The translations under genes and the position numbers were made by a program. The notes under the pieces were generated by a model. That model searched no databases, was not told the DNA's origin, and saw only the letters and a list, made by a program, of their open reading frames with translations. From assembly GCA_964603585.1 (NCBI GenBank), contig CAZRVK010000001.1, positions 207,856 to 271,855 of the forward strand: 64,000 nucleotides of DNA. The letters run 5' to 3'. Within the stretch, counting starts at the first letter, position 1, and every line of letters begins with the position of its first letter. The stretch comes from an uncultured Planctomycetales bacterium (lineage in GTDB: Bacteria; Omnitrophota; Gorgyraeia; Gygaellales; Profunditerraquicolaceae). Positions 1,922-37,491 of the stretch are shown one piece after another.

Positions 1922-3111
1922 CTGTCGATTTGACTACCCGTATGGCTTAAGACTTCATCCAATACCCTTACTGCCTGATCGATCTCTTTTTTATTGACAT
2001 TTAAAGCCGGCATCAGGCGTAAAACCTTATCATGCGTACAATTGATCAATAACCTGCGGTTAAAACATTCTTCTACGATCCGTTTTCCCTCGATACTCAA
2101 CTCTACCCCCGCCATCAAACCCAAACCCCTTACCTGCTTTATCAAAGGATGTTTGGCCTTAAGGGAATCCAGGCAGGAAAACAAATATCTGCTCATCTGC
2201 CGGGTATTTTCGAGCAATTTCTCCGTGCCGATGGCTTTTATCACTGCCAATGCCGCCATGGAAACTAATGGTGAGCCGCCAAATGTAGAGGCATGCATGC
2301 CGATAGATAAAGTATCGGAAAAATCTTTTTTTACCACCATCGCACCTATCGGCAACCCCCCGCCCAAAGCTTTAGCTAATGTCATAATATCGGGAGTAAA
2401 GGAAAAATGTTCATAGGCAAACATTTTCCCCGTCCGGCCAAAACCGGTCTGGACCTCATCAATGATCAAAAGCATCTTCCTTTGGTCGCAGATCTTCCGA
2501 AGAGCGGCAACGAAATCCTTATCCGCAAGATTAACCCCGCCTTCACCCTGGACCAATTCCAGCATGATCGCCACCGTTTTATCGGTAATAGCTGCTTCTA
2601 CCCCGTCCAAATCATTAAAATCCACATATTTGAACCCTAAAGGAAGAGGCTGGAAACCCCTATGATATTTTTCCTGCCCGGTCGCGGCCAATGCCCCTAA
2701 TGTCCGGCCATGAAAAGAATCCTTAAAAGTAATTATTTCATACCGGCCATTCCCGAATTTACGTGCCAGCTTAATCGCCGCTTCATTAGCTTCAGCTCCG
2801 CTGTTAGAGAAAAAAATCTTTGCATCAAAAGAAACCCGTACCAGTTCCTTCGCCAATTTTGCCTGCGGCAGGTTATAAAAATTATTGGGAACGAAAATCA
2901 ATTTTGCGACCTGTTCTCTTACCGCCTGCATTACCTTAGGATGACAATGACCTAAACTGCCCACTCCCCATCCTGGGAAGAAATCCAGGTATTTCCTGCC
3001 ATGAATATCCCAAAGGTAACTTCCTTTGCCCTTAACGAAAACCACGGGGATCTTACTATATGTCGGCAAAACACATTCCTGATATGTATTAAAAACATCT
3101 TGGATCTTCAT
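1918..3111 (-). CDS. argD: acetylornithine aminotransferase (class III PLP aminotransferase)
   Basis: 397 aa. Shows the class-III aminotransferase pattern (GNGRYEIITFKDSFHGRT, LLIIDEVQTGFGRTG, TFGGSPL). Sits between argB and argF. Confidence 0.85.
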   Translation of the reverse strand: MKIQDVFNTYQECVLPTYSKIPVVFVKGKGSYLWDIHGRKYLDFFPGWGVGSLGHCHPKVMQAVREQVAKLIFVPNNFYNLPQAKLAKELVRVSFDAKIFFSNSGAEANEAAIKLARKFGNGRYEIITFKDSFHGRTLGALAATGQEKYHRGFQPLPLGFKYVDFNDLDGVEAAITDKTVAIMLELVQGEGGVNLADKDFVAALRKICDQRKMLLIIDEVQTGFGRTGKMFAYEHFSFTPDIMTLAKALGGGLPIGAMVVKKDFSDTLSIGMHASTFGGSPLVSMAALAVIKAIGTEKLLENTRQMSRYLFSCLDSLKAKHPLIKQVRGLGLMAGVELSIEGKRIVEECFNRRLLINCTHDKVLRLMPALNVNKKEIDQAVRVLDEVLSHTGSQIDR

Positions 3112-16108: not shown

Positions 16109-16135
16109 TCTTACTCCTCCTTTGTCGAGTTTCAA

Positions 16136-16879
16136 CTATGCCATCACCATGCCACCATCAACTACTATTGTCTGGCCTGTAATATAGCTGGCTTCCTCCG
16201 AAGCCAGGAACAAGCAGGCGTTTGCCACATCCTTAGGTAAACCAAGCTTATTCATCGGGATCAGCGCAAGCATCTTCTGCTTGACTTCTTCAGGCAGTTT
16301 TGCTGTCATATCCGTCTGAATAAATCCAGGGGCTACCGCATTAACATTGATATTGCGGCTGGCAAATTCCTTGGCTGTTGTCTTGGTTAGAGCAATTATC
16401 CCGGCCTTTGATGCAGAATAATTAGCCTGCCCGGCGTTCCCGATTATCCCAATGATCGAAGCTATGTTAACGATCTTGCCATAACGTTGTTTTATCATCG
16501 GCTTAGAGATCGCCTTGGTGCAGTTAAAAGTCCCTTTTAGATTAACATTGATAACCGCATCCCAATCCGCATCACTCATTCTCAACATCAAATTATCCTT
16601 AGTGATGCCGGCATTGTTAACTAATATATCAACCTTTGTAAATTTGTCAAGAATTTTATTTACTCCCTGCTCCACAGAGGAATAATCCGTAACATTCAAT
16701 TCCAGCGCAAGCGATTTTCTGCCCATAGATTCAATCTGACGGCTGGTAACAGTTGACTTTTCCAGATTAATATCGCTTATTACCACGTCTGCGCCTTCAG
16801 CGGCAAAACCCAAGGCAATCTCCCTTCCGATCCCCTGGGCACTTCCCGTAACCAGAACCACCTTATCCTGAAATCTCAT
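16136..16879 (-). CDS. fabG: 3-oxoacyl-ACP reductase
   Basis: 247 aa SDR. Has VVLVTGSAQGIGREIA, NNAG, and the YSASKAG catalytic Tyr/Lys. Confidence 0.9.
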   Translation of the reverse strand: MRFQDKVVLVTGSAQGIGREIALGFAAEGADVVISDINLEKSTVTSRQIESMGRKSLALELNVTDYSSVEQGVNKILDKFTKVDILVNNAGITKDNLMLRMSDADWDAVINVNLKGTFNCTKAISKPMIKQRYGKIVNIASIIGIIGNAGQANYSASKAGIIALTKTTAKEFASRNINVNAVAPGFIQTDMTAKLPEEVKQKMLALIPMNKLGLPKDVANACLFLASEEASYITGQTIVVDGGMVMA

Positions 16880-16901
16880 CTTTTACCTCGCATAAAATTG
16901 A

Positions 16902-17816: not shown

Positions 17817-18793
17817 TCTATAACACAAGCTCCCCAGACCAATCCAGCGCCAAAAGCATCCAATAAAACAATGTCCCCTTTTTTTATCCGGCCGGCCTTA
17901 ACGGCATCACACAAAGCAGTAACAGTTGAAGCTGAAGACATATTACCGTATTTTTCAATATTCAAATATATCTTCTCATTAGGCAATCCCAATTTCTTGG
18001 CCATCGCCATAATGATCCGGATATTAGCCTGATGCGGAATAACCAGGTCTATATCCTTGCAATCCAGATTAGCTTTTTTTAAAGCCACCTGTGCCGCCTC
18101 GGCCATAAGCGTAACTGCCAGTTTAAAGAGCTCATTGCCCTGCATTTTTATATAATGCATCCTGTTGTCTATACTCTCATGGCTTGCCGGGTATCTTGAG
18201 CCTCCTCCGGGGATATTCAACAGATCCTTTTTACTGCCATCGCTGCCCAAATAAGTTGAAAGAACACCCCCTGATTTTACCTCTGACAATACTACTGCCC
18301 CCGCACCATCCCCGAATAAAACACAGGTGTTGCGGTCCTGCCAATCGGTTACTGAAGAAAGTTTTTCTGTCCCAATGACCAAGGCATGCTTATATGCACC
18401 GCTAGAGATAAATTGATGCGCCACAGTCAAGGCATAAACAAAACCGGCACAGGCAGCAGAAACATCAAAGCAAGCCGCTTCTTTAGCGGAAATTGCCTGT
18501 TGCACCAGGCAAGCGACTGAAGGAAAAGGCATATCCGGAGTAATCGTGGCGACAATGATCAAATCGATATCCTGCGGCTTCAATTTCGCATCATCGATGG
18601 CTGCAATTGCCGCCCTCACCGCCAAATCAGAGCTTGCCTCATCATTAGAGGCAAGGCGCCGCTCTTTTATCCCTGTGCGTGAGGTGATCCACTCATCAGA
18701 GGTATCTACGATCTTCTCCAGATCAGGGTTGGTAAGGACACGTTTAGGCAGGTATGAACCTACACCGATTATCCCGGTTTTTTTCATTATCAA
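17810..18793 (-). CDS. fabH: 3-oxoacyl-ACP synthase III
   Basis: 327 aa. N-terminus GIIGVGSYLPKRVLTN. Active-site Cys in VSAACAGFVYAL. Has the C-terminal GFGAGLVWG. Confidence 0.9.
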   Translation of the reverse strand: MIMKKTGIIGVGSYLPKRVLTNPDLEKIVDTSDEWITSRTGIKERRLASNDEASSDLAVRAAIAAIDDAKLKPQDIDLIIVATITPDMPFPSVACLVQQAISAKEAACFDVSAACAGFVYALTVAHQFISSGAYKHALVIGTEKLSSVTDWQDRNTCVLFGDGAGAVVLSEVKSGGVLSTYLGSDGSKKDLLNIPGGGSRYPASHESIDNRMHYIKMQGNELFKLAVTLMAEAAQVALKKANLDCKDIDLVIPHQANIRIIMAMAKKLGLPNEKIYLNIEKYGNMSSASTVTALCDAVKAGRIKKGDIVLLDAFGAGLVWGACVIEW

Positions 18794-18823
18794 GAAACAC
18801 TCCGTTTGCCTGGACCTGGTTGT

Positions 18824-19825
18824 TTATGCGCCTTTCCCTAAATTAATTTCCTTCATGATCTTTTCATTCACCTGGCGTTCTACTTCTTCACCGGCTACAC
18901 GAATGGCATTTTTGATCGCTTTCACATTAGAACGCCCATGGCCAATGATCACTACTCCATTCACGCCTAAAAGAGGTGCACCGCCATACTCGGAGTAATC
19001 CATCTCTTTTTTGAACGTAGAAAGCGTATTTTTCAGAAGCATCAATCCCAGTTTTTCAATAAAATTGCTTTTTAATAAATGCCTTTTCAAAAAAGTCTGG
19101 ATCGCCTCGGCGGTACTTTCAATGACCTTTAAAGCCACATTGCCAACAAACCCATCACAAAGCACAATATCGCATTTACCGGAGAAAAGATCCTTACCCT
19201 CGACATTGCCAATAAAATTAAGGCTGCTTTTTGCGAGCAATTCATAGGTGTCTTTAATAAACTCCGTACCTTTACTTTCCTCTTCCCCCACATTCAAAAG
19301 GCCGATCACCGGATCGGGCTTATTAAGGATATTCTGGCAGTAGGCCACCCCCATGATCGCATACTGCAATAAATGGGTAGGTTTTGGGTCAATATTGGCG
19401 CCGGCATCGACAATTAAAGCATTTCCTTTAAGAGTAGGAGTCACTATCGCAATCCCGGGGCGCTCAACCCCGGGCAGTAGACCCAGCCCTAAAGTTGCCC
19501 CGCAAACTACCGCTCCAGTATTACCAGCGCTAAAGAAAGCATCCCCTTTGCCTTCCTTGACCAGATTCAACCCCACAACAATGGAAGAATTTCTTTTCCT
19601 GCGCACACTGGTAGCAGGCGATTCATGCATTCCGATCACTTCTTGAGAATGCTGTATGGAAACTTTACCTTGAGTATACTTGTGTTTTTTGAACAAAGCC
19701 TCGATTTTAGGCTGATCACCAACTAAAACTATATCATGGTTATATTCCTGCGCTGCAACAATCGCCCCTTCAATCACCACCTCCGGGGCATAATCCCCGC
19801 CCATAGCATCGACAATTATTCTCAT
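18824..19825 (-). CDS. plsX: phosphate acyltransferase
   Basis: Shows the PlsX family pattern (MRIIVDAMGGDYAPEVV... FVGNVEG). I prefer an internal start at ATG 19823-19825 (MRIIVDAMGGD). Confidence 0.9.
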   Translation of the reverse strand: MRIIVDAMGGDYAPEVVIEGAIVAAQEYNHDIVLVGDQPKIEALFKKHKYTQGKVSIQHSQEVIGMHESPATSVRRKRNSSIVVGLNLVKEGKGDAFFSAGNTGAVVCGATLGLGLLPGVERPGIAIVTPTLKGNALIVDAGANIDPKPTHLLQYAIMGVAYCQNILNKPDPVIGLLNVGEEESKGTEFIKDTYELLAKSSLNFIGNVEGKDLFSGKCDIVLCDGFVGNVALKVIESTAEAIQTFLKRHLLKSNFIEKLGLMLLKNTLSTFKKEMDYSEYGGAPLLGVNGVVIIGHGRSNVKAIKNAIRVAGEEVERQVNEKIMKEINLGKGA

Positions 19826-19897
19826 AGAAGTATTTTTTTTACCGAAAACAGGGAAGACCTGCCCGATTTCCGGCACCGATACAGGAGTCAGACTAAC

Positions 19898-25347: not shown

Positions 25348-26001
25348 TTAGTATTTGTATGAAATACCGATAACACCAAGATAGGTATTGATCCCGCTGT
25401 TAGGATGGTCAATTCCGGCATTGGAAAGATGCCGTAAACGAAATTCACTCACCAAAGATAAATTCGGCTTAAAGAAATAATGCGCGCCAACAGCTCCTGT
25501 TTCAATGAAATTGAACTGTGTTGACTGCTCCTGGGTGTGCTGGGTCATATAAACCATTCCCACGCCAGCCTTTACAAAAGGCTGGAACTTCCAGTTCTCC
25601 GGGACAAGACCTAACTTCAGGAAAAAAGAATTTCCAACTTCCATATTCGAAGAAGGGTCCCAGACATAGGCTAAATACGGTTCTATCTGTAAATTTACCA
25701 AGGAAGACGGGTTAAATCCGATTCTTTTAGTCAGGTTCTTCAGGTTAAAATCGAGGTCTACGATAAAAGGAACAAAACGGTAATCCGGCTTTTTATCAAA
25801 AACACTTTTTGCCTTCAGTTTATTCCAAGCAAAGCCGCTAAGCAATTCAATGCCGGTAAACGGCATTAAAGGCTCTTTTTCCAATGATGCTCCGGTTTCG
25901 ACGGCTGCCTGTCCATCCACTTGAGCAGCCCAGGAAGGATAAAGAAAGGCAAAAATAAAACATATTGTGATGAGGAGCAATCTGCAGGGTAGCTTTATCA
26001 T
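25348..26001 (-). CDS. outer-membrane beta-barrel protein, lipid A 3-O-deacylase (PagL)-like
   Basis: 217 aa. Has a signal peptide and alternating beta-strand pattern, and ends in an aromatic residue (...GISYKY). A candidate His/Ser catalytic dyad lies in HLSNAGIDHPNSG near the C-terminus, as in PagL-type deacylases. Confidence 0.4.
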   Translation of the reverse strand: MIKLPCRLLLITICFIFAFLYPSWAAQVDGQAAVETGASLEKEPLMPFTGIELLSGFAWNKLKAKSVFDKKPDYRFVPFIVDLDFNLKNLTKRIGFNPSSLVNLQIEPYLAYVWDPSSNMEVGNSFFLKLGLVPENWKFQPFVKAGVGMVYMTQHTQEQSTQFNFIETGAVGAHYFFKPNLSLVSEFRLRHLSNAGIDHPNSGINTYLGVIGISYKY

Positions 26002-26121: not shown

Positions 26122-27348
26122 CTATATACGCCGGCACATCCTAACGGCTTTTTCCATTTCATTCTCCGAAATAAAAATACTCGTGGATAAAGTTATATGC
26201 CGCTTTGCCAAATAAGAAGCAGAAGGTAATTCTTTCTCCTGGATCACCCCTTTTAAATAATCATAGCCATTAACCGCAGAAGTATAAATTTGGGAAACCC
26301 CAAGCCCGGAGTTCTCAAACAGTTGCAGGGCCCTCTTGCGTTTTTGCTGGTCATCGAAAACCAAAGTTAAATACGGATATACGGCCTTTGCCCCTGCCGG
26401 TTCTTTTATCACCGTAACACCCGGAGTATCCTTAAGCCTATATATATAATACTCCGCTTTTTTACGCTGAGCGATAATCTGGCGGTCGATCTGATGAAAA
26501 CCAAGGTGGCCGATCATGTTCCTTAAAGCAGAAACCTTATGTGTAGGGAAGTGTTCACTAAAATACTCGATATTCGCCCTAAGCTTATTCCCCTGCATCT
26601 GCCAAAAGATCTGCGGCAGGCGGAAAACAAACCAGAAAAAAACAGGGTTATAGACAAAGGCATACCCGAACAACTCCGCGACCTTAAGGCCTTCGGAAAA
26701 AATGTCTTTTTTTACAAGCTCCGCGACCTTGCGGTTAACCACTTCTGTATATTCCTTTTTATTTACGGCGATCAAGCCTCCCTCATATATCGTCAATCCC
26801 TTGCCCCGGCACAGGCTGAAAAAAGAAAAATCCCCTAAAGTCCCCACCTTAGCCTGCCGATAGCAGGCCCCTAAACTCTGGGCACAATCTTCGATAATAA
26901 ATATCCCGTTCAACCGGCAGATATGAGAGATCTCCTCGAAGACCAGCGGCACTCCAGCCAGGTGGACTGCTACCACCGCCAAGATATCTTTATTCGAAGA
27001 ACATATCCTTTCAAGATCCCCGGGATCAAAATTAAAGTCCCGGGGGTTTATATCGCAAACCTGGACTTTAAGCCCTGCCCGCTTAATCGCCAAAGGCAGC
27101 AACGGGCAAACAAAAGCTGGAATGACCACGGTTTTTCTTGCGGATAGTTCTTTTAAGCTTTCAAGGATCAAATAAAATGCCGCGCTTCCGGAATAAACCA
27201 GCCATGCAGAATCAACACCAAGGTAGCCTCGAAAATCACCCTCTAAAGAGCCATTCCGGCAAGCTTTCTTTAACCCCGAAAAGATATCTTTCCAGTAAAC
27301 TGGCAGTCCGGCAGTTGGAGGGATTTCTCTAAACAGACTCATTTGCAT
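26122..27348 (-). CDS. DegT/DnrJ/EryC1/StrS-family PLP-dependent aminotransferase
   Basis: 408 aa. Family blocks present (IIEDCAQSLGA..KVGTLGDFSFFSLCRGKGLTIYEGG) with a PLP-lysine region. Confidence 0.75.
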   Translation of the reverse strand: MQMSLFREIPPTAGLPVYWKDIFSGLKKACRNGSLEGDFRGYLGVDSAWLVYSGSAAFYLILESLKELSARKTVVIPAFVCPLLPLAIKRAGLKVQVCDINPRDFNFDPGDLERICSSNKDILAVVAVHLAGVPLVFEEISHICRLNGIFIIEDCAQSLGACYRQAKVGTLGDFSFFSLCRGKGLTIYEGGLIAVNKKEYTEVVNRKVAELVKKDIFSEGLKVAELFGYAFVYNPVFFWFVFRLPQIFWQMQGNKLRANIEYFSEHFPTHKVSALRNMIGHLGFHQIDRQIIAQRKKAEYYIYRLKDTPGVTVIKEPAGAKAVYPYLTLVFDDQQKRKRALQLFENSGLGVSQIYTSAVNGYDYLKGVIQEKELPSASYLAKRHITLSTSIFISENEMEKAVRMCRRI

Positions 27349-27444: not shown

Positions 27445-27861
27445 ATGAAAACAAAAAAAGTAACATTAAAAATTCTGTCATTCTTAATACTCACCGACCT
27501 TTTAGAAACCTTAACCCAGTTTTGTTTTAAGAAAAGCGCCGACCTGCAAAGCGCATTTTATATAAATACAATTACTGATACTTACCAATTCCTCAAAGTA
27601 ATCTTTTCTTCCGGCTACCTTTGGGTCGGTTTTATTTCCGTGTTCTTGACCTTCAGCATATGGTCAACGATACTTTCGAAAATCGATCTAAGTGTCGCCG
27701 TCCCTATCGCCAGTTTCAGCTACATATTAGTGCCCTTGGTCTCGATTGTCTTCCTGCATGAACAGGTTTCAATCCTTGACTGGACAGGGATATTCTTCAT
27801 CCTAACTGGAGTAATATTTGTTTCTCTTAGCAGTGAAAAAACCGGAGCTGTAAGTAAATGA
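27445..27861 (+). CDS. small 4-TM membrane protein, DMT/EamA half-transporter (ArnE/ArnF-like)
   Basis: 138 aa with 4 predicted TM helices. Overlaps the next gene by 4 bp (ATGA), which suggests a heterodimeric pair. Confidence 0.5.
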   Translation: MKTKKVTLKILSFLILTDLLETLTQFCFKKSADLQSAFYINTITDTYQFLKVIFSSGYLWVGFISVFLTFSIWSTILSKIDLSVAVPIASFSYILVPLVSIVFLHEQVSILDWTGIFFILTGVIFVSLSSEKTGAVSK

Positions 27862-28247
27862 AAAACAGCGCACTCTTTATAGTATCTCTTATCATCCTGG
27901 CTTCACTTTTTGATACCATCAATCAACTGTTCCTTAAAACCACCATAAACTCACTAGACTTAAATATAAACGGTTTTAAAAAAGCTGTCGGGTTCGTATT
28001 GAAACTGCTTACCAGGCCAAGGATCTGGGTCGGTTTCTTCTTCTGCTGTCTGTCCCTGGTAGTCTGGCTATTCGTGCTTTCAAAGGCCGACTTGAATTTC
28101 GCATTCTCGGTTGACAGTATGCATTATATTTTTATTGCTATCGCCTCAAAATTCATTTTAAAGGAAAAGGTTGGCTTTAAACGGTGGGTCGGAACCGCCT
28201 TTATTGTTTTAGGGATTATCTTACTAACTTTTAGCAACAGTAATTAA
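27858..28247 (+). CDS. small 4-TM membrane protein, DMT/EamA half-transporter (ArnE/ArnF-like partner)
   Basis: 129 aa with 4 predicted TM helices. Translationally coupled to the preceding gene. Confidence 0.5.
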   Translation: MKNSALFIVSLIILASLFDTINQLFLKTTINSLDLNINGFKKAVGFVLKLLTRPRIWVGFFFCCLSLVVWLFVLSKADLNFAFSVDSMHYIFIAIASKFILKEKVGFKRWVGTAFIVLGIILLTFSNSN

Positions 28248-28249
28248 TC

Positions 28250-29755
28250 CTATTTCAAATACCTAAGGACTAAATTAGCCGCATTGATCCCGGAAATAAA
28301 ACATCCGTGCACACCCCCTCCCGGAACAGTCCAGGCACCCGCTAAAAACAACCCGTTAACCGGAGTCTTCTGGGGCAGGCGGTTTATGCTTGACTCCGAG
28401 ACAGTTTGAGCGAACCCATAAATCGCCCCGTCATCAGACAAGGTGTATCTTTGCATGGTTTTTGGGGTCGCCGCATCCATTACCTCGATATTTTTAGATA
28501 ACCCAGGAAGATATTGTTCGGCACGCCGTATCAATTTATCGGCGACCTTAGCTTTTTTCTGCTGATACTCTTGGCGGCTTAAATTGCTCCAATGCGCGAA
28601 ACTATCGAAGGTAATGATCAGTAAACTGCCTTTTCCGTAAGGGACAATGCTGGGATCCACCTGGGCATGATCAGTTAAGATCAATGAACAACGGTCATAA
28701 TCGCCTAAAAGGCAATAATTAAAGTTTTCATCGTGGCTGTAAGAGGTACTGATCGATAACAACCCGTGGTCCATGCCTAAATCCTTTGCCGGTACCTTAA
28801 GCCCTAAATATACCTGAAATGCAGAAATTGACTTTTCCTTAACAGCCAAGCGATGGGCATACTTATCCTTGAGGTCCGCATGATCCAGTAACTGCGTCAT
28901 GGTCTGGATCGCAGAAGCGTTAGAAATTACGGCTTTGGCCTCAAATTCCTGGCCATCAACCGCCAGCACGGATAAGGAATATTTATTATGGGGGATTATT
29001 TTCTTGACCAAGGTGTTGAATCTTACCTGTGAGCCGTTTTCTTTTATTTTATCTGATATCGCACGAAAAAGCTGCAGAAATCCGCCCCGGACATAAGCGG
29101 TAGGATTATAAAAATAACCCCTAAAAACAATAAAGAAATAAAATGCCGAGAGTTTACTTGGCGCCAACCCCATAAACCTCCAGATATCACCAATGATGCC
29201 TTTGAGCCTTTGATCGCCGATATATTTATCCAGCACTCCAGATGCGGAGCCAGAGGACATACTGATAATAGCCGGATATAAAAAAGGGGCAAGAAGCAAA
29301 TTAATCAATTCCGGTAATTTCGAGTTATTGAACCGGTCAAATTGCTGATAAAACCCATCCAGATCAGAAAAAAGCTTCTCGATCCCGTTTTTTTCATGGG
29401 GGAAATTATTCTGTAAGAAAGCGATTAAATGCTCCCTGCTAAAATCCGCGGTAAAATCATGGTCCGGATAAATGATCCTGGCAAAATCTTTAAGCGGAAT
29501 GAATTCCACTTTTCTATCGACACCATATTCCTCAAGGAATTGCCGTATCTCTCCCTGGGGAGCAAGCGCATTCACACAATGTATGGCAGACTCGAAAATA
29601 AACCCTTTACGAAGAAAGGTTGTAGCATATCCTCCAGGAACAGGCTGTCTTTCCAAGACCAGGATTTTCTTGCCGGAAGCAGATAGTTTTAAAGCCGAAA
29701 CTAACCCCGCAACCCCGGCACCAATAATGATCGCATCATAACGCATGATCGTCAC
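28250..29755 (-). CDS. FAD-dependent oxidoreductase, phytoene desaturase (CrtI)-like / amine-oxidase fold
   Basis: 501 aa. The N-terminal dinucleotide-binding motif YDAIIIGAGVAGLVSALKL...LVLERQPVPGGY is present. Length and C-terminal GGGVHG fit CrtI-type enzymes. Confidence 0.7.
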   Translation of the reverse strand: MTIMRYDAIIIGAGVAGLVSALKLSASGKKILVLERQPVPGGYATTFLRKGFIFESAIHCVNALAPQGEIRQFLEEYGVDRKVEFIPLKDFARIIYPDHDFTADFSREHLIAFLQNNFPHEKNGIEKLFSDLDGFYQQFDRFNNSKLPELINLLLAPFLYPAIISMSSGSASGVLDKYIGDQRLKGIIGDIWRFMGLAPSKLSAFYFFIVFRGYFYNPTAYVRGGFLQLFRAISDKIKENGSQVRFNTLVKKIIPHNKYSLSVLAVDGQEFEAKAVISNASAIQTMTQLLDHADLKDKYAHRLAVKEKSISAFQVYLGLKVPAKDLGMDHGLLSISTSYSHDENFNYCLLGDYDRCSLILTDHAQVDPSIVPYGKGSLLIITFDSFAHWSNLSRQEYQQKKAKVADKLIRRAEQYLPGLSKNIEVMDAATPKTMQRYTLSDDGAIYGFAQTVSESSINRLPQKTPVNGLFLAGAWTVPGGGVHGCFISGINAANLVLRYLK

Positions 29756-29762: not shown

Positions 29763-30599
29763 TTATATGCTGTTTAGAAAAGCAATGAACTCCTGGGCAA
29801 CCCGGTCTTTTTCCTTATCAATAGTTATCATATGGTAACTATCTTCAATAACTATCAGGGATTTATTCATAGATCCAATATGATTAAGGACAAACTCGGC
29901 ATTTTTAAGACTGGTCATATCATCTTCTTTGGCGTGAATTATCAGGATAGGGGTTTGCACGCTCTTTAACTCTTTTTTTACGGTTTTAGTAAAAAGATGG
30001 TGCTGGTAAAGGCAGCTCATCGGGAAAAAAGGGCTTCCGAACAATAAAACCTTGTTGCTGAATTTCTTGGCACTGGCATCCTTATAAAACCTCTCAATGT
30101 TCCATCGCAACTCTTCATCTTTTAAACCATACGGCCAGCCTTCCCGGATATCCAGGCGGTTACGAATGAAAGGTATATGCCAGACCAGGTTCATTAAGGC
30201 CTTGCCTTTATGCAAAGCCCAGCCATCATAATATATAGTGGGCGCCAAAGCCACTATCCCGGATATCTGGTCCGGGAACTTATAGGCCAGGTGTATGCTC
30301 ATCAAAGCACCCAAAGACAACCCCCCGACATAAACCCGCAGATGATCTTTTTTTAAAAAATGCAGATCATCGGAGCAGGCCGAGGCAATCTCCTGCCAGG
30401 TAACCTTTTTCAACTCCCCTAAAGTCCCGCAGTGGCGCGGCAATGCATTGCAGAATACCGTATACCCTGCCTGATTCAGTTTCTTACCCAGATAACGCAT
30501 TTCCGAAGGAGTCCCGGTGATCCCGTGGATCAAAAGCACTGCCTTGCCATTATCGCCCTTAAGCAAGAAATTAAATTTCTTAGAATTATTAATAGTCAT
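29763..30599 (-). CDS. alpha/beta-fold hydrolase (esterase/thioesterase/acyltransferase type)
   Basis: The nucleophile elbow is GLSLG. An HG oxyanion region (LLIHGITG) is present. I moved the start to ATG 30597-30599 (MTINNSKK), because the longer track ORF would overlap the divergent gene and its promoter. Confidence 0.7.
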   Translation of the reverse strand: MTINNSKKFNFLLKGDNGKAVLLIHGITGTPSEMRYLGKKLNQAGYTVFCNALPRHCGTLGELKKVTWQEIASACSDDLHFLKKDHLRVYVGGLSLGALMSIHLAYKFPDQISGIVALAPTIYYDGWALHKGKALMNLVWHIPFIRNRLDIREGWPYGLKDEELRWNIERFYKDASAKKFSNKVLLFGSPFFPMSCLYQHHLFTKTVKKELKSVQTPILIIHAKEDDMTSLKNAEFVLNHIGSMNKSLIVIEDSYHMITIDKEKDRVAQEFIAFLNSI

Positions 30600-30655
30600 A
30601 ATGTGGGTTATTATATCATAAAATCCATTGATGTGAATTAATATTGCAGCCTTTC

Positions 30656-30683
30656 CTGACAGATAAAATACCGTATATATAAT
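30656..30683 (+). promoter_or_regulatory. candidate sigma70 promoter of the DUF482-like gene (cTGACA-N16-TATAAT)
   Basis: Plus strand: cctgacagataaaataccgtataTATAATtg. It lies 35 nt upstream of ATG 30719, in the divergent intergenic region. Confidence 0.3.
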
Positions 30684-30718
30684 TGCATTTATCCTGTTTT
30701 TTGCTATACTTCTAATCC

Positions 30719-31849
30719 ATGGCCGATAAAAACAGTTTAACATTTAAGATCAAGCACACCATTAACGACATCCCTGAATCTGCCTGGAGGGACCTTTTTG
30801 ATAAAGGCATAGTAGAAAATTACGGTTATCATAAGACCCTCGAGGAATCCGGGCTGAAAGAATTCTCATTCGCATACCTCACGGCAGAACGCGCAAATAA
30901 GCTTTGTGCGATCGTGCCATTTTTTATCATGGATTTCTCATTCGATACCCTGCTGCCAGATCACTTTAAAAAAATCGCCAAAAGGCTCAAACCATACATC
31001 AAAATGAAAGTGCTTTTTTTAGGCGCCCCGACAACCGAAGAATTTTATTTCGGGCTTTCTTCTGAAGAAAACATAGAGCCGTTCTTTAACCAGGCCATTC
31101 AGGAACTCCATTCGTTCTGCAAGGAAAAGAATGTCTGCGGACTGAATTTTTACAACATCTCCGATAAAAATGCCGCCTTACGCCGGTATTTACAAAAGAA
31201 CGGGTTCATTGAGATGGAAAGCCTGCCCACAACAATGATCGAGATAAAAGCCTCCTCCCTGGATGATTATATCCGCGGCCTAAGCAAAAATATGCAAAAA
31301 GACATCCGCCGGAAGATAAACCGATCACAAAGCCAAGTCCAGCTTACTACCGAAACACGTGATAATATAGACGATATCAGCCAGGAGATATACCGTTTAT
31401 ATTTAAACAATTTCTCTGATTCCGAAGTACGTTTTGAGGTTTTAACCGAGGATTTCTTTCGCAGGATTTGCCGCAATATGCCGAATGAGGCCAAATATTT
31501 TATAACTTACGCCGGAACAAAAATCGTGGCATTCAACTTGTTCATGGCAAAAGACGGCCTTTTTATAGACAAATTCATCGGTTTCGATGAAGAAACCCGT
31601 ATAAAATATCATTTATACTTCACCACCTTCTGCCACAATATCGATTGGTGTATAAAAAACGGCTGTAATTTTTACCAACCGGGAACCACTGACTACCACC
31701 CTAAGCTAAGGCTGGGGGCAAAACTGATCCCCCTTTATAACCAGGCAAAAGGATTCAACCCGCTCTTGCACAATTTTCTAAAATTAATCTCAAGATTTAT
31801 CCAACCGATCAATCTTGACCCATCATTGAAAGAACTTAGAAAACCTTAA
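30719..31849 (+). CDS. GNAT-fold acyltransferase, DUF482/FemAB-like (PEP-CTERM-associated type) family
   Basis: 376 aa. The N-terminal pattern INDIPESAWRDLFDKG...YHKTLEESGL...KLCAIVPFFIMD resembles the FemAB-like/BioF2-like N-acyltransferase family. Overall length and the twin-GNAT architecture fit. Confidence 0.5.
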   Translation: MADKNSLTFKIKHTINDIPESAWRDLFDKGIVENYGYHKTLEESGLKEFSFAYLTAERANKLCAIVPFFIMDFSFDTLLPDHFKKIAKRLKPYIKMKVLFLGAPTTEEFYFGLSSEENIEPFFNQAIQELHSFCKEKNVCGLNFYNISDKNAALRRYLQKNGFIEMESLPTTMIEIKASSLDDYIRGLSKNMQKDIRRKINRSQSQVQLTTETRDNIDDISQEIYRLYLNNFSDSEVRFEVLTEDFFRRICRNMPNEAKYFITYAGTKIVAFNLFMAKDGLFIDKFIGFDEETRIKYHLYFTTFCHNIDWCIKNGCNFYQPGTTDYHPKLRLGAKLIPLYNQAKGFNPLLHNFLKLISRFIQPINLDPSLKELRKP

Positions 31850-33063
31850 AGGAAAGAAGCCTTCTTCATTACCAAACTGGCATTATTACCGCCAAAGGCT
31901 GAAGCGTTATTGAGGGCAATATCGACCTTCATTTGCCTGGCAACATTAGGCACACAATCGATATCGCATTCCGGATCGGGAGTTTGGTAATTAATCGTAG
32001 GAGGGACAATATCGTTTTGGAGTGCCAAAGCGCAAGTGATCGCTTCGATCGCGGAAGCAGCACCCATCGTATGCCCAAGCATGGATTTAATAGAACTCAC
32101 TGCAACCTTACCTTGGATACCCGCAAAAACCGCCTTAATTGCGGCGGATTCGACTTTATCATTAACGGGAGTGCCGGTGCCATGGGCACTGACATAATCC
32201 ACATCTTCTGCCTTGACATTAGCCTGCTTTAACGCATTCCGCATGGACCGGGCAACACCATCAGCTTCTGGTGCAGTCATATGATACGCATCACAGCTTA
32301 AGCCGTACCCGAGGACTTCCGCATAGATCACCGCCTTGCGGTTTAAGGCATTCTCCATACTCTCTAAAACCACAATACCTGCGCCTTCTCCTACCATCAT
32401 CCCTTTGCGGTTCTTATCAAAAGGCTGGCATTTAACCGGCGCTACCGCCAAAAGCCGGTTAAATCCGGTAAAAGCAAGGCGGGAAAAAGCATCCACCCCT
32501 CCGGCAAGCATCATCTCTGCCTGCCCCATGCGGATCAAGTCACAGGCGTATCCGATCGCATAATTCCCCGCAGCACAGGCAGTAGGGATCACCAAATTCG
32601 GACCACTTATCCCTAACTCATTGGCGACATTAAAAGCCAGGACATTTGCCGGATACTGGAAAATAAGCTCCGGGTTTATCGCATTCACTCCCCCTTTTAT
32701 CCAGGAAGAATTAATCACTTCTAAAACTTGAGACTCCCCCATTGTCGTTCCTAAAATCACTCCGGTTTCCCGGTGATCCATGGAAACTGCCTTTAATCCG
32801 GCATCCTTTAACGCCAATTTGGCAGAAGCAATCGCCAGGCATGAAGTCCGGCCCAGATTAGCTATTTTATTCTTTGCAATAAATAATGCCGGATCAAAAT
32901 CCTTAACCTCACCGCCGTTATGCGTTGGATAATTTGAAGTATCAAAAGAGGTGATCTCCGAGATCCCGGAAACACCTTTTAAGAGGGCCGGCCAAAAAGC
33001 ATCCCTGCCAATACCAATCGAAGATATGACTCCTATACCCGTGATTACGATACGCTTATTCAT
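31846..33063 (-). CDS. 3-oxoacyl-ACP synthase (FabF/KS type, catalytically complete)
   Basis: 405 aa. Has the Cys block PTACAAGNYAIG and the His motifs AHGTGTPVND and GHTMGAAS. This is a second KS, distinct from the housekeeping fabF. Confidence 0.85.
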   Translation of the reverse strand: MNKRIVITGIGVISSIGIGRDAFWPALLKGVSGISEITSFDTSNYPTHNGGEVKDFDPALFIAKNKIANLGRTSCLAIASAKLALKDAGLKAVSMDHRETGVILGTTMGESQVLEVINSSWIKGGVNAINPELIFQYPANVLAFNVANELGISGPNLVIPTACAAGNYAIGYACDLIRMGQAEMMLAGGVDAFSRLAFTGFNRLLAVAPVKCQPFDKNRKGMMVGEGAGIVVLESMENALNRKAVIYAEVLGYGLSCDAYHMTAPEADGVARSMRNALKQANVKAEDVDYVSAHGTGTPVNDKVESAAIKAVFAGIQGKVAVSSIKSMLGHTMGAASAIEAITCALALQNDIVPPTINYQTPDPECDIDCVPNVARQMKVDIALNNASAFGGNNASLVMKKASFL

Positions 33064-33068
33064 AAATT

Positions 33069-33527
33069 TTACAATCCCTGGCCATCCATTACATCCTCTT
33101 TAGCACTTAAGGATATCTCTGCCTTGGCGACATCACGGTCTGCAACCTGGGCAAGCGCCTCAACTATCGCCACACCAGACAACATCTTCACCGGAGTTAC
33201 CGTAATTTTAAGCTGATCACCGGGTAAAACCGGGCTCAAATACCTGACCTTAGCTGCACCCAAATAATAAGACATCTTCTTTTGCCCTAAAGCAACGGAT
33301 TTTGCGGAATAAAAAAGCACGATCGCCGCTTGTGCCATTGCCTCCAGGATCAAAACCCCCGGCATCACCGGCTTATCCGGGAAATGTCCGGCAAAGAACT
33401 GCTCGTTCATACTGACATTTTTCACCGCCACGACTTTTTTGGCGGGATCTATCTCCACCACCCGATCGATCATCAAAAAAGGGAACCGTTGAGGCAGGAT
33501 CCTTTGGATTTCCTCGATATTAAGCAT
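33069..33527 (-). CDS. fabZ: 3-hydroxyacyl-ACP dehydratase
   Basis: 152 aa. Has the FabZ hot-dog motifs FFAGHFPDKPVMPGVLILEAMAQ. Confidence 0.85.
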   Translation of the reverse strand: MLNIEEIQRILPQRFPFLMIDRVVEIDPAKKVVAVKNVSMNEQFFAGHFPDKPVMPGVLILEAMAQAAIVLFYSAKSVALGQKKMSYYLGAAKVRYLSPVLPGDQLKITVTPVKMLSGVAIVEALAQVADRDVAKAEISLSAKEDVMDGQGL

Positions 33528-33777
33528 TACTTGCTCCTTTACTATCTAAAAACTGCCTGGCTACCGCCACAGTCTCTTTTAATGTAGTAAGCTGCGCAAG
33601 TTTATCCTCGGGGATCGCGATCTTATATTTTTTCTCTATCGCCGCCATGATCTCTAAGGCCATCATCGAATCAACCCCCAGATCCTCAAAGAACCTGGCA
33701 TCAGGCGTAACCTCTGCCGGAGTTTTTTCAATGATCTCTGCGATGATCCCTCTTATCTCTTCCTCGATATTTTGCAT
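33520..33777 (-). CDS. acyl carrier protein (second copy)
   Basis: 85 aa. The phosphopantetheine motif DLGVDSMMALEI is present. Confidence 0.85.
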   Translation of the reverse strand: MQNIEEEIRGIIAEIIEKTPAEVTPDARFFEDLGVDSMMALEIMAAIEKKYKIAIPEDKLAQLTTLKETVAVARQFLDSKGASNA

Positions 33778-33787
33778 ACATACCCTC

Positions 33788-34534
33788 CTATTTTATTCCA
33801 AGCCCGCCGTCTATGATAATTGTCTGTCCCGTAATATACCCGGAAGCGTCATCAAGCAGGAATTTTACCGCAAAAGCAACATCCTCGGCCTGGCCAAACC
33901 TGCCAAAAGGAATATTTTCTTTAATCACTGTTTTATATTTATCATTCAAAGCAGCCACCATGTCAGTTTCAATAAAACCCGGCGCGACCGCATTCACCCG
34001 GATATTATAAGGCCCCACTTCCTTTGCCAATGATTTGGTAAAACCGATCATTCCGGATTTAGAAGCAGCATAATTGCTTTGGCGCGACATCCCCACCACC
34101 CCGCTCACAGAAGAAATATTTACGATACTTCCTTTTTTCTGTTTGAGAAAAGTCACAATGGCATTACGGGTGACATTGAACATCCCTCCAAGATTAGTAT
34201 CGATCACCTCCTGCCAATCATCTTTGGTCATCATCATTAGCGCTTTATCCCTGGTAATACCAGCGTTATTGACTAAAATATCCAGCCTCCCAAAATTCTC
34301 CAGGGTCTTGCCTACCAACTCCTTCGATTTCTCAAAATCACGGGCATCCATCTGTAATGCCAGATATTTACCCCCTAAAGCCTTGATCTCATCTCCAAGG
34401 TCATTCGCCTGGCTTGTACTCTTTAAATAAGTAAAAACGATATTAGCGCCCTCTCTGGCTAACATTAAGATGATCGCTTTGCCAATACCTCTGGTGCCGC
34501 CGGTAACTATCGCTGTCTTCTGCTCAAATAACAT
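33788..34534 (-). CDS. 3-oxoacyl-ACP reductase (SDR, FabG-like; second copy)
   Basis: 248 aa. Has TAIVTGGTRGIGKAI, NNAGI, and the YAASKSG catalytic motif. Confidence 0.85.
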   Translation of the reverse strand: MLFEQKTAIVTGGTRGIGKAIILMLAREGANIVFTYLKSTSQANDLGDEIKALGGKYLALQMDARDFEKSKELVGKTLENFGRLDILVNNAGITRDKALMMMTKDDWQEVIDTNLGGMFNVTRNAIVTFLKQKKGSIVNISSVSGVVGMSRQSNYAASKSGMIGFTKSLAKEVGPYNIRVNAVAPGFIETDMVAALNDKYKTVIKENIPFGRFGQAEDVAFAVKFLLDDASGYITGQTIIIDGGLGIK

Positions 34535-34536
34535 AT

Positions 34537-35772
34537 TTATCCCCGGAATTTAGAAAATACAGCACTGGCAGTGCGCGCCTGTGATGCACAGCTGTTAACC
34601 AGGACATTGTTCACCTCGCATTCAAGCGTTTTACCCGTAACAAAATTAAGCCCGCATTCTGGATCCGCCTCTGCATAATTAGCCATCGCCGGCACACCCT
34701 GGCGGGTTAAAGCCAACACAGCCTCGATACTCTGCAAAACCCCCCCGGCACTATAAGATTCGCCCACAATGGATTTAAGCGCCGTTACCGGTGGTAGTTC
34801 TCCAACAGAAGAAAAAACGTTTTTTATGGAAATGGCTTCGATCTTATCGGCGTAAACTGTAGAATTGGCGGCAGCAGAGATATAACCGATCTGATCCAGG
34901 CCGATTGCGGATTCTCGGGATGCCATCTGCATTGACTGGGTCAAACCTGCTTGGCCAAAACCCCAGCCAAAACCAGAAACTTCCGCATAGATATTTGCCC
35001 CGCGGTCAACCGCAGATCCCAGTTCTTCCAATACCAATATCCCGGCACCTTCAGATAAAACAATACCATTCCTTCTTTTATCGAATGGACAGCTCAACTC
35101 CACACTCCCCAAGGACGTGCCAGCTAAAAATCCGGTTTTATAAAAACCCAAATAGATCTGCTCGCACAACTCCTCCACTGCCCCAGCCAGGATAAATTTC
35201 GCCCGGCCTAAACGCAAAAAATCATAAGCATATTTTAATGCATCCAGGGAAGCAGAGAATCCGGTCGAGATCGTGGTATTTAGCCCTTTAATGTTGAATC
35301 TAAGTGAAACCTGGCTCGCCGGGGAGTTGATCACCGTGTTAGGAAAAAGAGCGGGATTAACATACTGCGGGCCATCTATCACGGCATCCCGGTCAAAATT
35401 ACTGATACTGCTGACACTGCCCAGGGTATTACCCACAACTACCCCAGCCTCACAGGTATTACTGTCATCCATTATGACCTTTGCGTCATCCAAGGCCAAT
35501 TTGGTCGCGCATAAAAGCAGCTTTGTGCTTCGGTCAAGCGTCCTAAGCCCTTTTGCGCCTAAGATCGCTTCCGGAGCAAAACCCCCTATCTCTCCTGCTG
35601 TTTTTGCGCTAAATCCAGCGGTATCAAACAAAGAAACCGGTTTTATCCCGGAAATAGAATTAAAAACAGCCTGCATAAAGGCATCTTTTCCGACAGCATT
35701 AGAGGCAACTACCCCCAAACCGGTAACAACCACTCTTTTTCTCATGAATTTCCCCTTAGAACTGACATTCAA
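34537..35772 (-). CDS. ketosynthase-like protein lacking the Cys-His-His catalytic triad (chain-length-factor-like partner)
   Basis: It has the KS fold throughout. At the position of the active-site Cys it reads ISTGFSAS, against ATACASG in FabF. At the first His it reads AAANSTV, against AHGTST. At the second His it reads GESYSAGG, against GHLLGAAG. The likely true start is ATG 35743-35745 (MRKRVVVTGLG), with an AAGGGG RBS upstream. Confidence 0.7.
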   Translation of the reverse strand: MNVSSKGKFMRKRVVVTGLGVVASNAVGKDAFMQAVFNSISGIKPVSLFDTAGFSAKTAGEIGGFAPEAILGAKGLRTLDRSTKLLLCATKLALDDAKVIMDDSNTCEAGVVVGNTLGSVSSISNFDRDAVIDGPQYVNPALFPNTVINSPASQVSLRFNIKGLNTTISTGFSASLDALKYAYDFLRLGRAKFILAGAVEELCEQIYLGFYKTGFLAGTSLGSVELSCPFDKRRNGIVLSEGAGILVLEELGSAVDRGANIYAEVSGFGWGFGQAGLTQSMQMASRESAIGLDQIGYISAAANSTVYADKIEAISIKNVFSSVGELPPVTALKSIVGESYSAGGVLQSIEAVLALTRQGVPAMANYAEADPECGLNFVTGKTLECEVNNVLVNSCASQARTASAVFSKFRG

Positions 35773-35791: not shown

Positions 35792-35820
35792 ATTATATCT
35801 CTCTTAAAACTTTATCTCAA
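35792..35820 (-). promoter_or_regulatory. candidate sigma70 promoter (TTGAGA-N17-TATAAT) for the CLF-KR-ACP-DH-KS operon
   Basis: Minus-strand reading: cTTGAGAtaaagttttaagagagaTATAATat. It lies in the 121-bp gap upstream of the CLF-like gene. Confidence 0.4.
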
Positions 35821-35893: not shown

Positions 35894-36832
35894 TCACATG
35901 AGCGCCTCGGCTATCCGGATATTCGTCTGTCCGTTCGTTGCATCAATCTGCCTGTCATCAACATCTTTTGCGCTATACTCTTTCGGATGATCAAGGGTTG
36001 AACAAATCGATTTAAACCTGCCGTGTATCTTTATCCGGGAATACTCCCCGGTAACATCTAATCCAACGATATCCGTATTCTCCTTGAAAAATTTCAGGAT
36101 AAAAAGCAGCTCATCCAGGGAAAAACGGCCTTCCTCCCAGTTGGTCAAGGCATACTTACGGGTCAGACAATCCTTATCAATACTGATATATACCTTATCG
36201 GTGGCAAAGCGCCCTATCATAGAAGACAGGAATTTTCCCATCTCCCTGCCTTTAAGTTCCTGCCAGGATATTTCATTATAATACCAGCTTTTTTTTAATC
36301 CAATAGACAGATTTTGCGGCACATCCCTGAATATTACCCTGGCAGGTTTATGCGAATATGGATAAATCTCCAGCCGGTTATTCCTCATAGCAGCCAAATT
36401 CCCGCTTTCCAAATGCAAAGTCGAAATATCATCAGAGGCTACACCGAATAAAACCACTTTCTCAATGTTTTGTGAGCGTAACGCCCGGCTAACCCAGGAA
36501 CCACATCCGGTTTTCGGAGGCAAGGTATCCCAATCAGGGTGATTATCAAAAACAATCAGGTTTAGAGGCTGACTGAACTGCTCTAAGAGGATGCTGGAGA
36601 TATGATGGAAGTCACCGGACCCAAAGAAAGTTATCCGGTTCTTATCGGAAAAGGCCAGCGCCTGCTTTATCTGGATCTCGGCGTTTTTATCCAGCCAGAA
36701 CCGGCAATCAAGCCCTATTTTCAGCAAATCAACTACTTCGGGATTGAAACGCCTGATAAAATCATCCTGCCTTAAAAGGCTGTTATCAAAATTGAGTATG
36801 CGGATTTGACCGGGAAGTAATCGATTCATCAA
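35894..36832 (-). CDS. arginase/agmatinase/formiminoglutamase-fold (ureohydrolase superfamily) protein, substrate unknown
   Basis: 312 aa. Counterparts of the arginase metal-binding motifs appear in the canonical order. GSGDFHHIS stands for GGDHS, FDNHPD for DAHAD, SIDKDCL for SxDxDxLDP, and GLDVTGEYS for DVVE. Confidence 0.45.
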   Translation of the reverse strand: MMNRLLPGQIRILNFDNSLLRQDDFIRRFNPEVVDLLKIGLDCRFWLDKNAEIQIKQALAFSDKNRITFFGSGDFHHISSILLEQFSQPLNLIVFDNHPDWDTLPPKTGCGSWVSRALRSQNIEKVVLFGVASDDISTLHLESGNLAAMRNNRLEIYPYSHKPARVIFRDVPQNLSIGLKKSWYYNEISWQELKGREMGKFLSSMIGRFATDKVYISIDKDCLTRKYALTNWEEGRFSLDELLFILKFFKENTDIVGLDVTGEYSRIKIHGRFKSICSTLDHPKEYSAKDVDDRQIDATNGQTNIRIAEALM

Positions 36833-37491
36833 ACCATTCTTCTTAAACCAGCATAGACGCTTTTTAAATCCCTGAACGGGATACAGCCGCGCCTTATCTT
36901 TTTAAAATATTCCAACAGATCATCCTTGGCAAAAACAATATCTGCCTGCTGGGCAGGGCAAATATCAGAACGGCCGTCTCCGATATAAATGATCCTCTCC
37001 TTAAACCTGTTTCTTAATAAATTGTTCCTCTTGCAATGAGCACAATAAGAACAAGCGCGGTTATGATGCGGAAAATAAAGCAATAATCTGTTTTTGGAGA
37101 ATTTCAGCCGGTTAGAACAAACCTTTATGCCGCAAATATCATTTTGGCGTAGGATGACATTGATAATAAAAGAAAAATTATCGCTTAATATCTTGACCGG
37201 GATATTCTTTGATTTAAGTAAAACAAGTATTTTCTTGAAATAAGGGTCGATCTTTATGCCGGACAAATAGCGCAATAAATCTGTCTTGGATAAACGCACG
37301 CCTGCTAATTGCCCTCTAAGGCAGGCCCGGGAGCCAATAACCCCCTTTTTCCACTGTCTTTCAAGTTCAACCCATTTCTTATCTATCGAGAAACGTTTAA
37401 TGATATCATCCAAAACATCAACCTTTGTGATCGTATTGTCAAAATCAAAGAAAACTGCATGTCCAGATAAGAAATTCATATATTCCGCCAT
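36829..37491 (-). CDS. HAD-superfamily phosphatase (MtnX/phosphoserine-phosphatase-like subfamily) with an inserted Cys cluster
   Basis: 220 aa. Motif I is FFDFDNTIT (DxDxT). A C-terminal GDGRSD motif is present. There is an unusual CSYCAHC segment. Confidence 0.55.
   Translation of the reverse strand: MAEYMNFLSGHAVFFDFDNTITKVDVLDDIIKRFSIDKKWVELERQWKKGVIGSRACLRGQLAGVRLSKTDLLRYLSGIKIDPYFKKILVLLKSKNIPVKILSDNFSFIINVILRQNDICGIKVCSNRLKFSKNRLLLYFPHHNRACSYCAHCKRNNLLRNRFKERIIYIGDGRSDICPAQQADIVFAKDDLLEYFKKIRRGCIPFRDLKSVYAGLRRMV

Follow-up and report, generated by a model that had tools for sequence, protein, structure and literature searches.

The window analysed here, the whole stretch of 64,000 nucleotides (nt) from contig CAZRVK010000001.1 of an uncultured bacterium of the Omnitrophota, carries a pair of overlapping genes for two putative hydrolases. 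One encodes a divergent protein of the ureohydrolase fold, hereafter ARG, and the other a HAD-type phosphatase. A sequence-only reading of the window had taken the pair to be accessory to the ketosynthase (KS) genes that follow it. The main interest of the pair is a different one, namely its place in a conserved, uncharacterised gene module and the natural fusion of ARG to a Fem-like transferase. The two genes are as follows.

35894..36832, minus strand: ARG, divergent ureohydrolase-fold protein, an open reading frame (ORF) of 312 amino acids (aa) with a listed TTG start
36829..37491, minus strand: MtnX-like HAD-IB phosphatase of 220 aa (TIGR01489, PF06888, DxDxT)

Both ORFs were found on the strand and at the coordinates given in the sequence-only reading, and the overlap described there was borne out. 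The stop codon of the HAD gene and the start codon of ARG share the sequence TGATG, which suggests that the two genes may be translationally coupled. The likelier start of ARG is the ATG at 36829, directly after the listed TTG, giving a gene at 35894..36829 and a protein of 311 aa. Upstream, the start region of the HAD gene overlaps the stop of rluD, where an internal ATG and the rluD stop form ATGA. rluD is preceded on the same strand by lgt, lspA, a DksA-like gene and ileS.

ARG scored 36 bits with the Pfam arginase family PF00491, above the cut-off of 22 and with an E value of 6.8e-9, and the resemblance to arginases is therefore not due to chance. A database search returned 1226 homologues of about 309 aa, the named ones mostly from Candidatus Omnitrophota, and most of these also carry a precomputed PF00491 match. 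Searching 1.84 billion representative proteins with a profile brought up 1610 relatives at E <= 0.001, and a scan of one genome per species located relatives in at least 541 genomes, mostly of Omnitrophota. The PDB sequence search with the single ARG protein reached only E 0.49, and the family profile was needed to obtain matches. Ureohydrolases are characterized by the motifs GGDHS, DAHXD and SXDXDXXDP, which hold six metal ligands (PMC10028609). In ARG, the blocks GSGDFHHIS, FDNHPD, SIDKDCL and GLDVTGE follow each other in this order, and the metal ligands H75/H76 (GSGDFHH), D95/H97/D99 (FDxHPDW) and D218/D220 (SIDKDC) were invariant in an alignment of 29 homologues of 48-77% identity. The six-ligand binuclear-metal set of the ureohydrolases is complete in ARG, and its motifs are also kept in distant and fused relatives.

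The presence and order of all four ureohydrolase blocks, as claimed in the sequence-only reading, held up when their register was checked in real alignments. The family profile placed FDxHPD in register with DAHPD and SIDKDCL in register with SIDVDCL of an Arabidopsis arginase, and the match to the agmatinase model spanned ARG residues 31-124, where the first two blocks lie. Alignment by hhalign to E. coli SpeB, whose sequence was entered by hand, paired SIDKDCL with FDIDCL and IVGLDVTG with IVGMDVVE. The further claim that each block was substituted or shifted was right for the fourth block and wrong for the metal ligands, all six of which are intact. On these alignments only the fourth block appears really shifted: G261 of ARG takes the place of SpeB E274, and an E or D follows directly at position 262, so that the glutamate would be displaced by one residue.

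The AlphaFold (AF2) model of ARG, with a confidence score (pLDDT) of 89.4 and a predicted template-modelling score (pTM) of 0.90, shows the arginase-type α/β/α fold. When it was compared with the PDB by Foldseek, only ureohydrolases were found among the 50 matches listed, with a probability of 1.00, template-modelling (TM) scores of 0.43-0.61 and identities of 9-16%. These were agmatinases, a guanidinase, GdmH, proclavaminate amidinohydrolase, arginases, guanidinopropionase, formiminoglutamase and metformin hydrolase. The canonical substrate-holding loops are replaced in ARG by the family-specific motifs PPxxGCGSW, TNWEEG, DHP and NxxTN, which were invariant in the alignment of 29 sequences. 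Residues 103-110 formed the low-confidence stretch of the model; this loop consists of invariant residues and may be a substrate lid. ARG is thus, on sequence and model, a divergent member of the ureohydrolase fold with a full set of binuclear-metal ligands. It is very improbable that ARG is an inactive ureohydrolase-like scaffold or a chance resemblance. The very low identity to characterised enzymes and the poorly modelled loop would fit such a protein, but the metal ligands are invariant among homologues and persist in distant and fused relatives, and the Pfam E value is far from random.

The sequence-only reading had also suggested that the substrate may be neither arginine nor agmatine, and the subfamily models agree with this suggestion. 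ARG scored 16.6 bits against 174.3 for the agmatinase equivalog TIGR01230 and 23.5 against 302 for NF002564. These scores are about one tenth of the cut-offs, which argues that ARG is not a housekeeping enzyme. With the group of agmatinases, arginases and guanidinases (E. coli SpeB 7lol, Nitrospira guanidinase 9fek, Synechocystis GdmH 7esr) ARG shares the α/β/α fold and the six ligands in the same order and spacing, D-x-H-x-D and S-x-D-x-D being intact. It differs from that group in its first block, which is GSGDFHH instead of GGDHS, in its low identity of 9-16%, in the apparent shift of the guanidinium-binding glutamate by one residue and in the replaced substrate loops. It also differs in its context, which is a Fem-like transferase and membrane proteins and not polyamine or arginine catabolism.

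Two specialised ureohydrolases offer closer parallels. Peptide arginases convert arginine to ornithine inside larger molecules, an example being OspR of landornamide biosynthesis, PDB 8BRP (PMC10028609). ARG resembles OspR in that the metal ligands are kept within altered motifs and in its proposed action on arginine held within a larger molecule; peptide arginases make ornithine where no direct route exists, and the same is proposed for ARG. The motifs themselves are different, ARG having GSGDFHH and SIDKDCL. As ARG lacks the OspR motifs, it is not a member of the OspR family of peptide arginases. OspR was absent from the ARG sequence searches against solved structures and from the 50 Foldseek matches listed, and no RiPP precursor or other genes for RiPPs (peptides made on the ribosome and modified after translation) were found in the ARG neighbourhoods. 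Proclavaminate amidinohydrolase of the clavulanic acid pathway (1gq6) was among the top 15 structural matches of ARG, at about 13% identity. In its pathway this ureohydrolase frees an amine on an intermediate derived from arginine, and a tandem GNAT of the same pathway (2wpw) was among the top 10 structural matches of the FemAB-like partner of ARG described below. The parallel is one of logic and not of demonstrated common ancestry, and the ARG module has no β-lactam context.

The second protein of the pair was described in the sequence-only reading as an MtnX/PSP-like HAD phosphatase with a DxDxT motif, and this assignment is supported. It scored 116.5 bits against a cut-off of 81.55 for TIGR01489, the MtnX-like HAD-IB subfamily, and 68 bits against 27 for PF06888, and its DxDxT motif reads FDFDNT. 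Among solved structures, human phosphoserine phosphatase and B. subtilis MtnX (2fea) are the closest to it. The equivalog models for MtnX (TIGR03333, 57.7 against 303.2; NF007103, 66.6 against 292) and for SerB (TIGR00338, 39.7 bits against 144) were all failed. The CSYCAHC segment, which had been called an unusual insertion, turned out to be a family trait. The cluster C147-x2-C150-x2-C153 with C178 was 97-100% conserved in 62 orthologues and aligned with TCSNQCGCCK of MtnX in 2fea, and the Pfam and TIGR profile matches crossed the region without extra length. MtnX and the PHOSPHO1/2-type phosphatases of PF06888 share with this protein the HAD-IB class, the DxDxT motif and the position of the cysteine cluster. 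Unlike MtnX, it failed the MtnX equivalog models, and methionine-salvage genes are not near its gene.

The gene context of ARG was analysed in 80 related loci from species-representative genomes, in which ORFs were called and clustered. Neighbour frequencies refer to 43 loci in which ARG is flanked by 6 kb or more on each side. The usual order was the HAD gene, a gene for a 471-aa class-III aminotransferase (AT3) and ARG, adjoined by genes for an α/β-hydrolase, a DegT-family pyridoxal phosphate (PLP) enzyme, a FemAB-like tandem GNAT and two small EamA proteins. HAD was found near ARG in 36 of the 43 loci (84%), EamA in 79%, DegT in 72%, AT3 in 65%, the α/β-hydrolase and the FemAB-like protein in 58% each, and the lipid A deacylase PagL in 26%. 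In 51 of 64 eligible loci the HAD gene lay at most 2.5 kb upstream of ARG on the same strand. The module genes stay together even where their order or orientation is scrambled (loci L016, L021, L023, L062 and L083), which speaks for a functional link and not just for synteny kept by descent. HAD, AT3, ARG, the FemAB-like protein, the EamA pair, the DegT-like enzyme and the α/β-hydrolase thus form a conserved module in Omnitrophota and some other lineages. No published account of it was found in the literature searched (Omnitrophota arginase, PF04339, Omnitrophota lipid A/aminotransferase), and the module appears to be undescribed in the searchable literature. Apart from AT3, the full set is present in the window, together with the occasional neighbour PagL:

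30719..31849, plus strand: FemAB-like tandem GNAT of 376 aa (PF04339, 67.5 bits; PF13480, 50 bits)
29763..30743, minus strand: α/β-hydrolase (Hydrolase_4)
27445..28247, plus strand: two overlapping small EamA-type membrane proteins of 138 and 129 aa (PF00892)
26122..27348, minus strand: DegT/DnrJ/EryC1-family PLP enzyme of 408 aa (PF01041, 144 bits)
25348..26001, minus strand: PagL-like lipid A 3-O-deacylase (PF09411, 61 bits)

The EamA pair scored 35-45 bits with the ArnE and ArnF models. This is well under the cut-offs, so identity with the ArnE/F flippase was rejected and only an analogy is retained. A search for AT3 elsewhere in the window gave a single match (1945..3060, 31% identity), which was rejected as the argD of a normal arg operon. 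A biotin-synthesis reading of the module, with AT3 as a BioA-like and the hydrolase as a BioH-like enzyme near a BioY gene, was likewise dropped, as the scores were weak and the BioY synteny was specific to one clade. In about 45-50% of the loci a ThiI-like PP-loop protein and a radical SAM enzyme (clusters c10 and c8) are encoded directly upstream of HAD, and in L001 (4952-7742) the radical SAM gene overlaps the HAD start. Both genes are absent from that position in the window.

The regular presence of AT3 brings up ordinary nitrogen metabolism, with ARG acting as an arginase or agmatinase on a free substrate in partnership with an aminotransferase of the ornithine or putrescine type. An arginase gene is paired with an ornithine-type aminotransferase gene in this manner in rocD-rocF of Bacillus. 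In most loci the AT3 gene directly precedes ARG, the best NCBIfam matches of AT3 are acetylornithine/GABA-type transaminases, and the closest solved folds to ARG among the 50 matches listed are agmatinases and arginases. However, the agmatinase equivalog scores are far under the cut-offs, the identity to solved ureohydrolases is low, and such a role would explain neither why ARG is fused to a Fem-like GNAT nor why EamA genes are its constant neighbours. The module in the window moreover has no AT3, and the sole class-III aminotransferase is argD about 33 kb away. Ordinary nitrogen metabolism is therefore considered an improbable role for ARG.

The KS genes, to which the sequence-only reading had linked the pair, form a block (31846..35772) between ARG and the FemAB-like gene. 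The block and a promoter-like site in front of it are listed here.

35820..35792, minus strand: sigma-70-like promoter match TTGAGA-17-TATAAT (11/12 to consensus) in the gap between ARG and the first KS gene
34537-35772, minus strand: KS without active-site cysteine, resembling a chain-length factor (CLF), clade-specific insert
33788-34534, minus strand: FabG, clade-specific insert
33520-33777, minus strand: acyl carrier protein (ACP), clade-specific insert
33069-33527, minus strand: FabZ, clade-specific insert
31846-33063, minus strand: FabF-like KS, clade-specific insert

According to the sequence-only reading, HAD and ARG stand at the head of this KS or polyene operon and process the head group of its product. 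It is true that the KS/CLF-FabG-ACP-FabZ-KS genes follow the pair directly on the same strand, that no terminator was predicted in the 121-nt AT-rich gap downstream of ARG, and that the same arrangement was found in L005, L040, L047 and L048. Among the related loci the full five-gene set occurred only in these four, and the KS link is therefore specific to a small clade. The conserved co-occurrence expected of an accessory pair was not seen, as KS genes were near ARG in 6 of the 43 full-flank loci (14%), against 36 for HAD. The block looks inserted between ARG and the genes for the FemAB-like protein and the α/β-hydrolase, which lie close to ARG in most other loci, and the fusion-bearing modules of other lineages contain no KS genes. 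Nor was a position at the head of the operon supported, because the pair is coupled upstream to rluD and the gap before the KS genes holds the 11/12 promoter-like site, which is weak evidence given that such sites were as frequent in the scanned region as expected from shuffled sequence. A role of the pair as KS accessories is accordingly quite unlikely. As regards the partners of the pair, the KS link proved clade-limited, and the conserved partners are instead the FemAB-like protein, the EamA pair, the aminotransferases and the α/β-hydrolase. The general idea of the sequence-only reading, of a pair acting on a head group that bears a guanidino or phospho moiety, is still the best reading.

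As to the KS proteins themselves, the first has TGFSAS where the second has the active-site TACAAG, and the catalytic cysteine is absent from the first. Together they resemble the KS and chain-length factor of a type II polyketide synthase. Both gave sub-threshold matches to the model of the cispentacin protein AmcF.

ARG is linked to the FemAB-like transferase by gene fusion as well. In three proteins, P0172 (725 aa), P0187 (666 aa) and P0227 (701 aa), an N-terminal FemAB_like/Acetyltransf_6 region is fused to a C-terminal ARG domain, in which GSGDxHH, DNHPD and S(I/L)DKD are intact in all three. The fusion ORFs are continuous, lie on contigs from independent samples and represent three independent protein families. 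Other members of the module surround them. P0172 is followed by two EamA genes. The neighbourhood of P0187 comprises AT3, an α/β-hydrolase, a PF06888 HAD, two EamA proteins, a fatty-acid desaturase and the fusion. That of P0227 reads PF06888 HAD, M20 peptidase, AT3, AMP-binding ligase, GDSL lipase, fusion, EamA and an unannotated 139-aa ORF at the usual place of the second EamA gene. Unfused genes for the FemAB-like protein and ARG are adjacent and co-directional in L087, L016, L021, L036 and L042, and in L087 the two form a gene pair with the FemAB-like gene first. A further lineage shows the order AT3, HAD, FemAB-like, a 329-aa protein, EamA and EamA.

The FemAB-like protein of the window scored above the cut-offs of PF04339 and PF13480, and its AlphaFold (AF2) model, with a pLDDT of 87, is a tandem GNAT; part of the structure prediction was made on homologues instead of locus-derived sequences. 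The best TM-scores were obtained with FemX (0.57-0.58), with Sbb17/Sba18 (0.71-0.74, target-normalised) and with the synthase domain of L-PGS/MprF. Sequence matches and TM-scores together assign the protein to the Fem-type tandem GNAT fold. No sequence-level relative was found in the PDB. Sub-threshold matches to ATE_C, the domain of arginyl-tRNA-protein transferases, were found in 12 of 37 FemAB-like members, and ATE_C was the only other GNAT-clan family matched by more than one of them. GNATs of the Fem, MprF and ATE types are a related group that uses aminoacyl-tRNA (PMC2922099). The consensus of the FemAB-like family, inspected by eye, lacks the R/Q-x-x-G-x-G/A loop for acyl-coenzyme A (acyl-CoA).

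On this combined evidence from sequence, model and analogy, ARG may be a tailoring amidinohydrolase that acts on a guanidino conjugate handled by the FemAB-like transferase and not on free arginine or agmatine. This explanation is put forward with somewhat less than even confidence. The module as a whole probably decorates an envelope lipid or sugar. The Fem-like transferase would add arginine from Arg-tRNA to an amino or hydroxyl acceptor, and ARG would then trim the arginyl group to an ornithyl group with release of urea. Amination of a keto-phosphate followed by dephosphorylation is a common route to amino alcohols and amino sugars, and the aminotransferases and HAD might prepare the acceptor in this way. 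Passage of the product through the inner membrane, by flipping or export, would fall to the EamA pair, and in the clade of the window the dedicated KS/CLF-ACP set may supply a special acyl chain. To our knowledge no tRNA carries ornithine, so that the addition of arginine followed by the action of ARG would give a route to a cationic decoration of the ornithine type. The fully specified form of this scheme would be a hitherto undescribed two-step envelope aminoacylation in which arginine from Arg-tRNA is placed on a lipid or lipid-linked amino sugar and converted to ornithine by ARG, in some cases fused to the transferase, and an EamA heterodimer serves as flippase. In this detail the scheme is speculative and its likelihood limited; such a system would have a wide distribution in Omnitrophota and would also occur in some other lineages.

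Two known envelope systems show parts of the same design. In the MprF system, which makes aminoacyl-phosphatidylglycerol, the synthase is structurally matched by the Fem/MprF-like tandem GNAT of the module (L-PGS and MprF), and an α/β-hydrolase near the synthase has its analogue in the module. The Arn pathway, which adds aminoarabinose to lipid A, has its counterparts in a weakly ArnE/ArnF-like membrane part and in a DegT aminotransferase like ArnB. In contrast to both systems, the parts of the module are separate small proteins, homologues of ArnT, ArnC and ArnA are absent, and a ureohydrolase and a HAD-IB phosphatase are present, neither of which occurs in the MprF or Arn system.

An alternative is a route to an aminolipid, in which the FemAB-like protein would be an acyl-ACP- or acyl-CoA-dependent N-acyltransferase forming N-acyl-arginine, and ARG would release urea from it to leave N-acyl-ornithine. 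The α/β-hydrolase or a GDSL lipase, together with the EamA pair, would then finish and export an aminolipid of the ornithine-lipid type. Genes for lipid enzymes do recur around the module. The window shares its KS/CLF-ACP set with four other loci, L087, L088 and L089 have fatty-acid desaturases, L087 and L090 a GDSL lipase, L090 an AMP-binding ligase and 26% of the loci PagL, and Foldseek also matched the FemAB-like protein to tandem GNATs that use acyl-CoA, such as N-myristoyltransferase. Most loci, however, are without acyl-chain genes. The structures with the best TM-scores are tRNA-dependent transferases, the family is FemAB_like in Pfam with ATE_C as its sole recurrent GNAT-clan relative, and the acyl-CoA loop is missing from the consensus. 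The aminolipid route is on balance unlikely.

Several observations weigh against ARG as a tailoring enzyme on a Fem-type arginyl conjugate. The module has no conserved glycosyltransferase or lipid synthase from which the acceptor could be read, and the roles given to HAD, AT3 and DegT are guesses from enzyme class. The acidic residue of the fourth block, which binds guanidinium in arginases, appears shifted by one position in ARG. The acyl-CoA-using tandem GNATs found by Foldseek include VipF, the clavulanate-pathway GNAT and N-myristoyltransferase, and the ATE_C matches, being under the Pfam cut-off, may reflect only the shared GNAT fold. Locus L088 (937-6901) has the module without an ARG gene, in the order AT3, HAD, α/β-hydrolase, FemAB-like, a 107-aa protein, EamA and desaturase, which suggests that ARG is an optional tailoring step. 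Some ARG genes stand alone or between lgt and rluD (L019, L058). In L058 (3592-9947) the order is ileS, a small ORF, lspA, lgt, ARG and rluD, and the HAD gene is absent. The L058 protein is 43% identical to ARG of the window and lies in the same lipoprotein-maturation string, at a different position within it. The usual module neighbours were missing from ARG in L019, L028, L037, L056, L057, L063, L066, L067, L070 and L072; some of these loci are on short contigs, and L019 and L028 have full flanks. Such homologues may be paralogues or belong to dispersed modules.

The Omnitrophota are abundant bacteria whose cells are very small and most of which are uncultured, and little is known of their envelope chemistry. 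A clade of ureohydrolases present in at least 541 species genomes, with an intact catalytic centre, replaced substrate loops and a Fem-like partnership fixed up to gene fusion, must serve a specific and important role in these organisms. If conjugated arginine is indeed converted to ornithine, the logic of the peptide arginases would be extended from RiPPs to lipids or glycans. The product would be a new kind of cationic surface modification, with a bearing on resistance to antimicrobial peptides and on contact with host or prey. Even with another substrate, the module of about eight genes is well defined and experimentally tractable.

The window contains further genes of relevance to the metabolic background, listed with one additional protein.

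28250-29755, minus strand: CrtI-family or flavin amine-oxidase-like oxidoreductase of 501 aa (TIGR02734, 196 bits, cut-off 238; PF01593, 105 bits)
14532-19876, minus strand: further fatty-acid synthesis region of housekeeping appearance, containing PlsX and a FabF-type KS
986-6377, minus strand: arginine biosynthesis string of ornithine carbamoyltransferase (OTCase), argD-like class-III aminotransferase, amino-acid kinase, ArgJ and semialdehyde dehydrogenase
7330-8901, minus strand: 523-aa protein

The arginine biosynthesis string looks complete, so that the organism produces its ornithine and arginine through the normal pathway. The presence of a housekeeping-looking fatty-acid region indicates that the KS set beside ARG is an extra, specialised copy. 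Nearly all long ORFs of the window are on the minus strand, and the GC skew was negative throughout, from -0.06 to -0.25, which is consistent with one replichore with a strong gene-strand bias. As nearly every gene points the same way, shared direction says little about operon structure here. The CrtI-like oxidoreductase gene sits between the α/β-hydrolase and EamA genes, and among the related loci it was found only in the window, in the KS-bearing L040 and L047 and in L062. The sole family match of the 523-aa protein was a weak one to DUF6541, at 31 bits.

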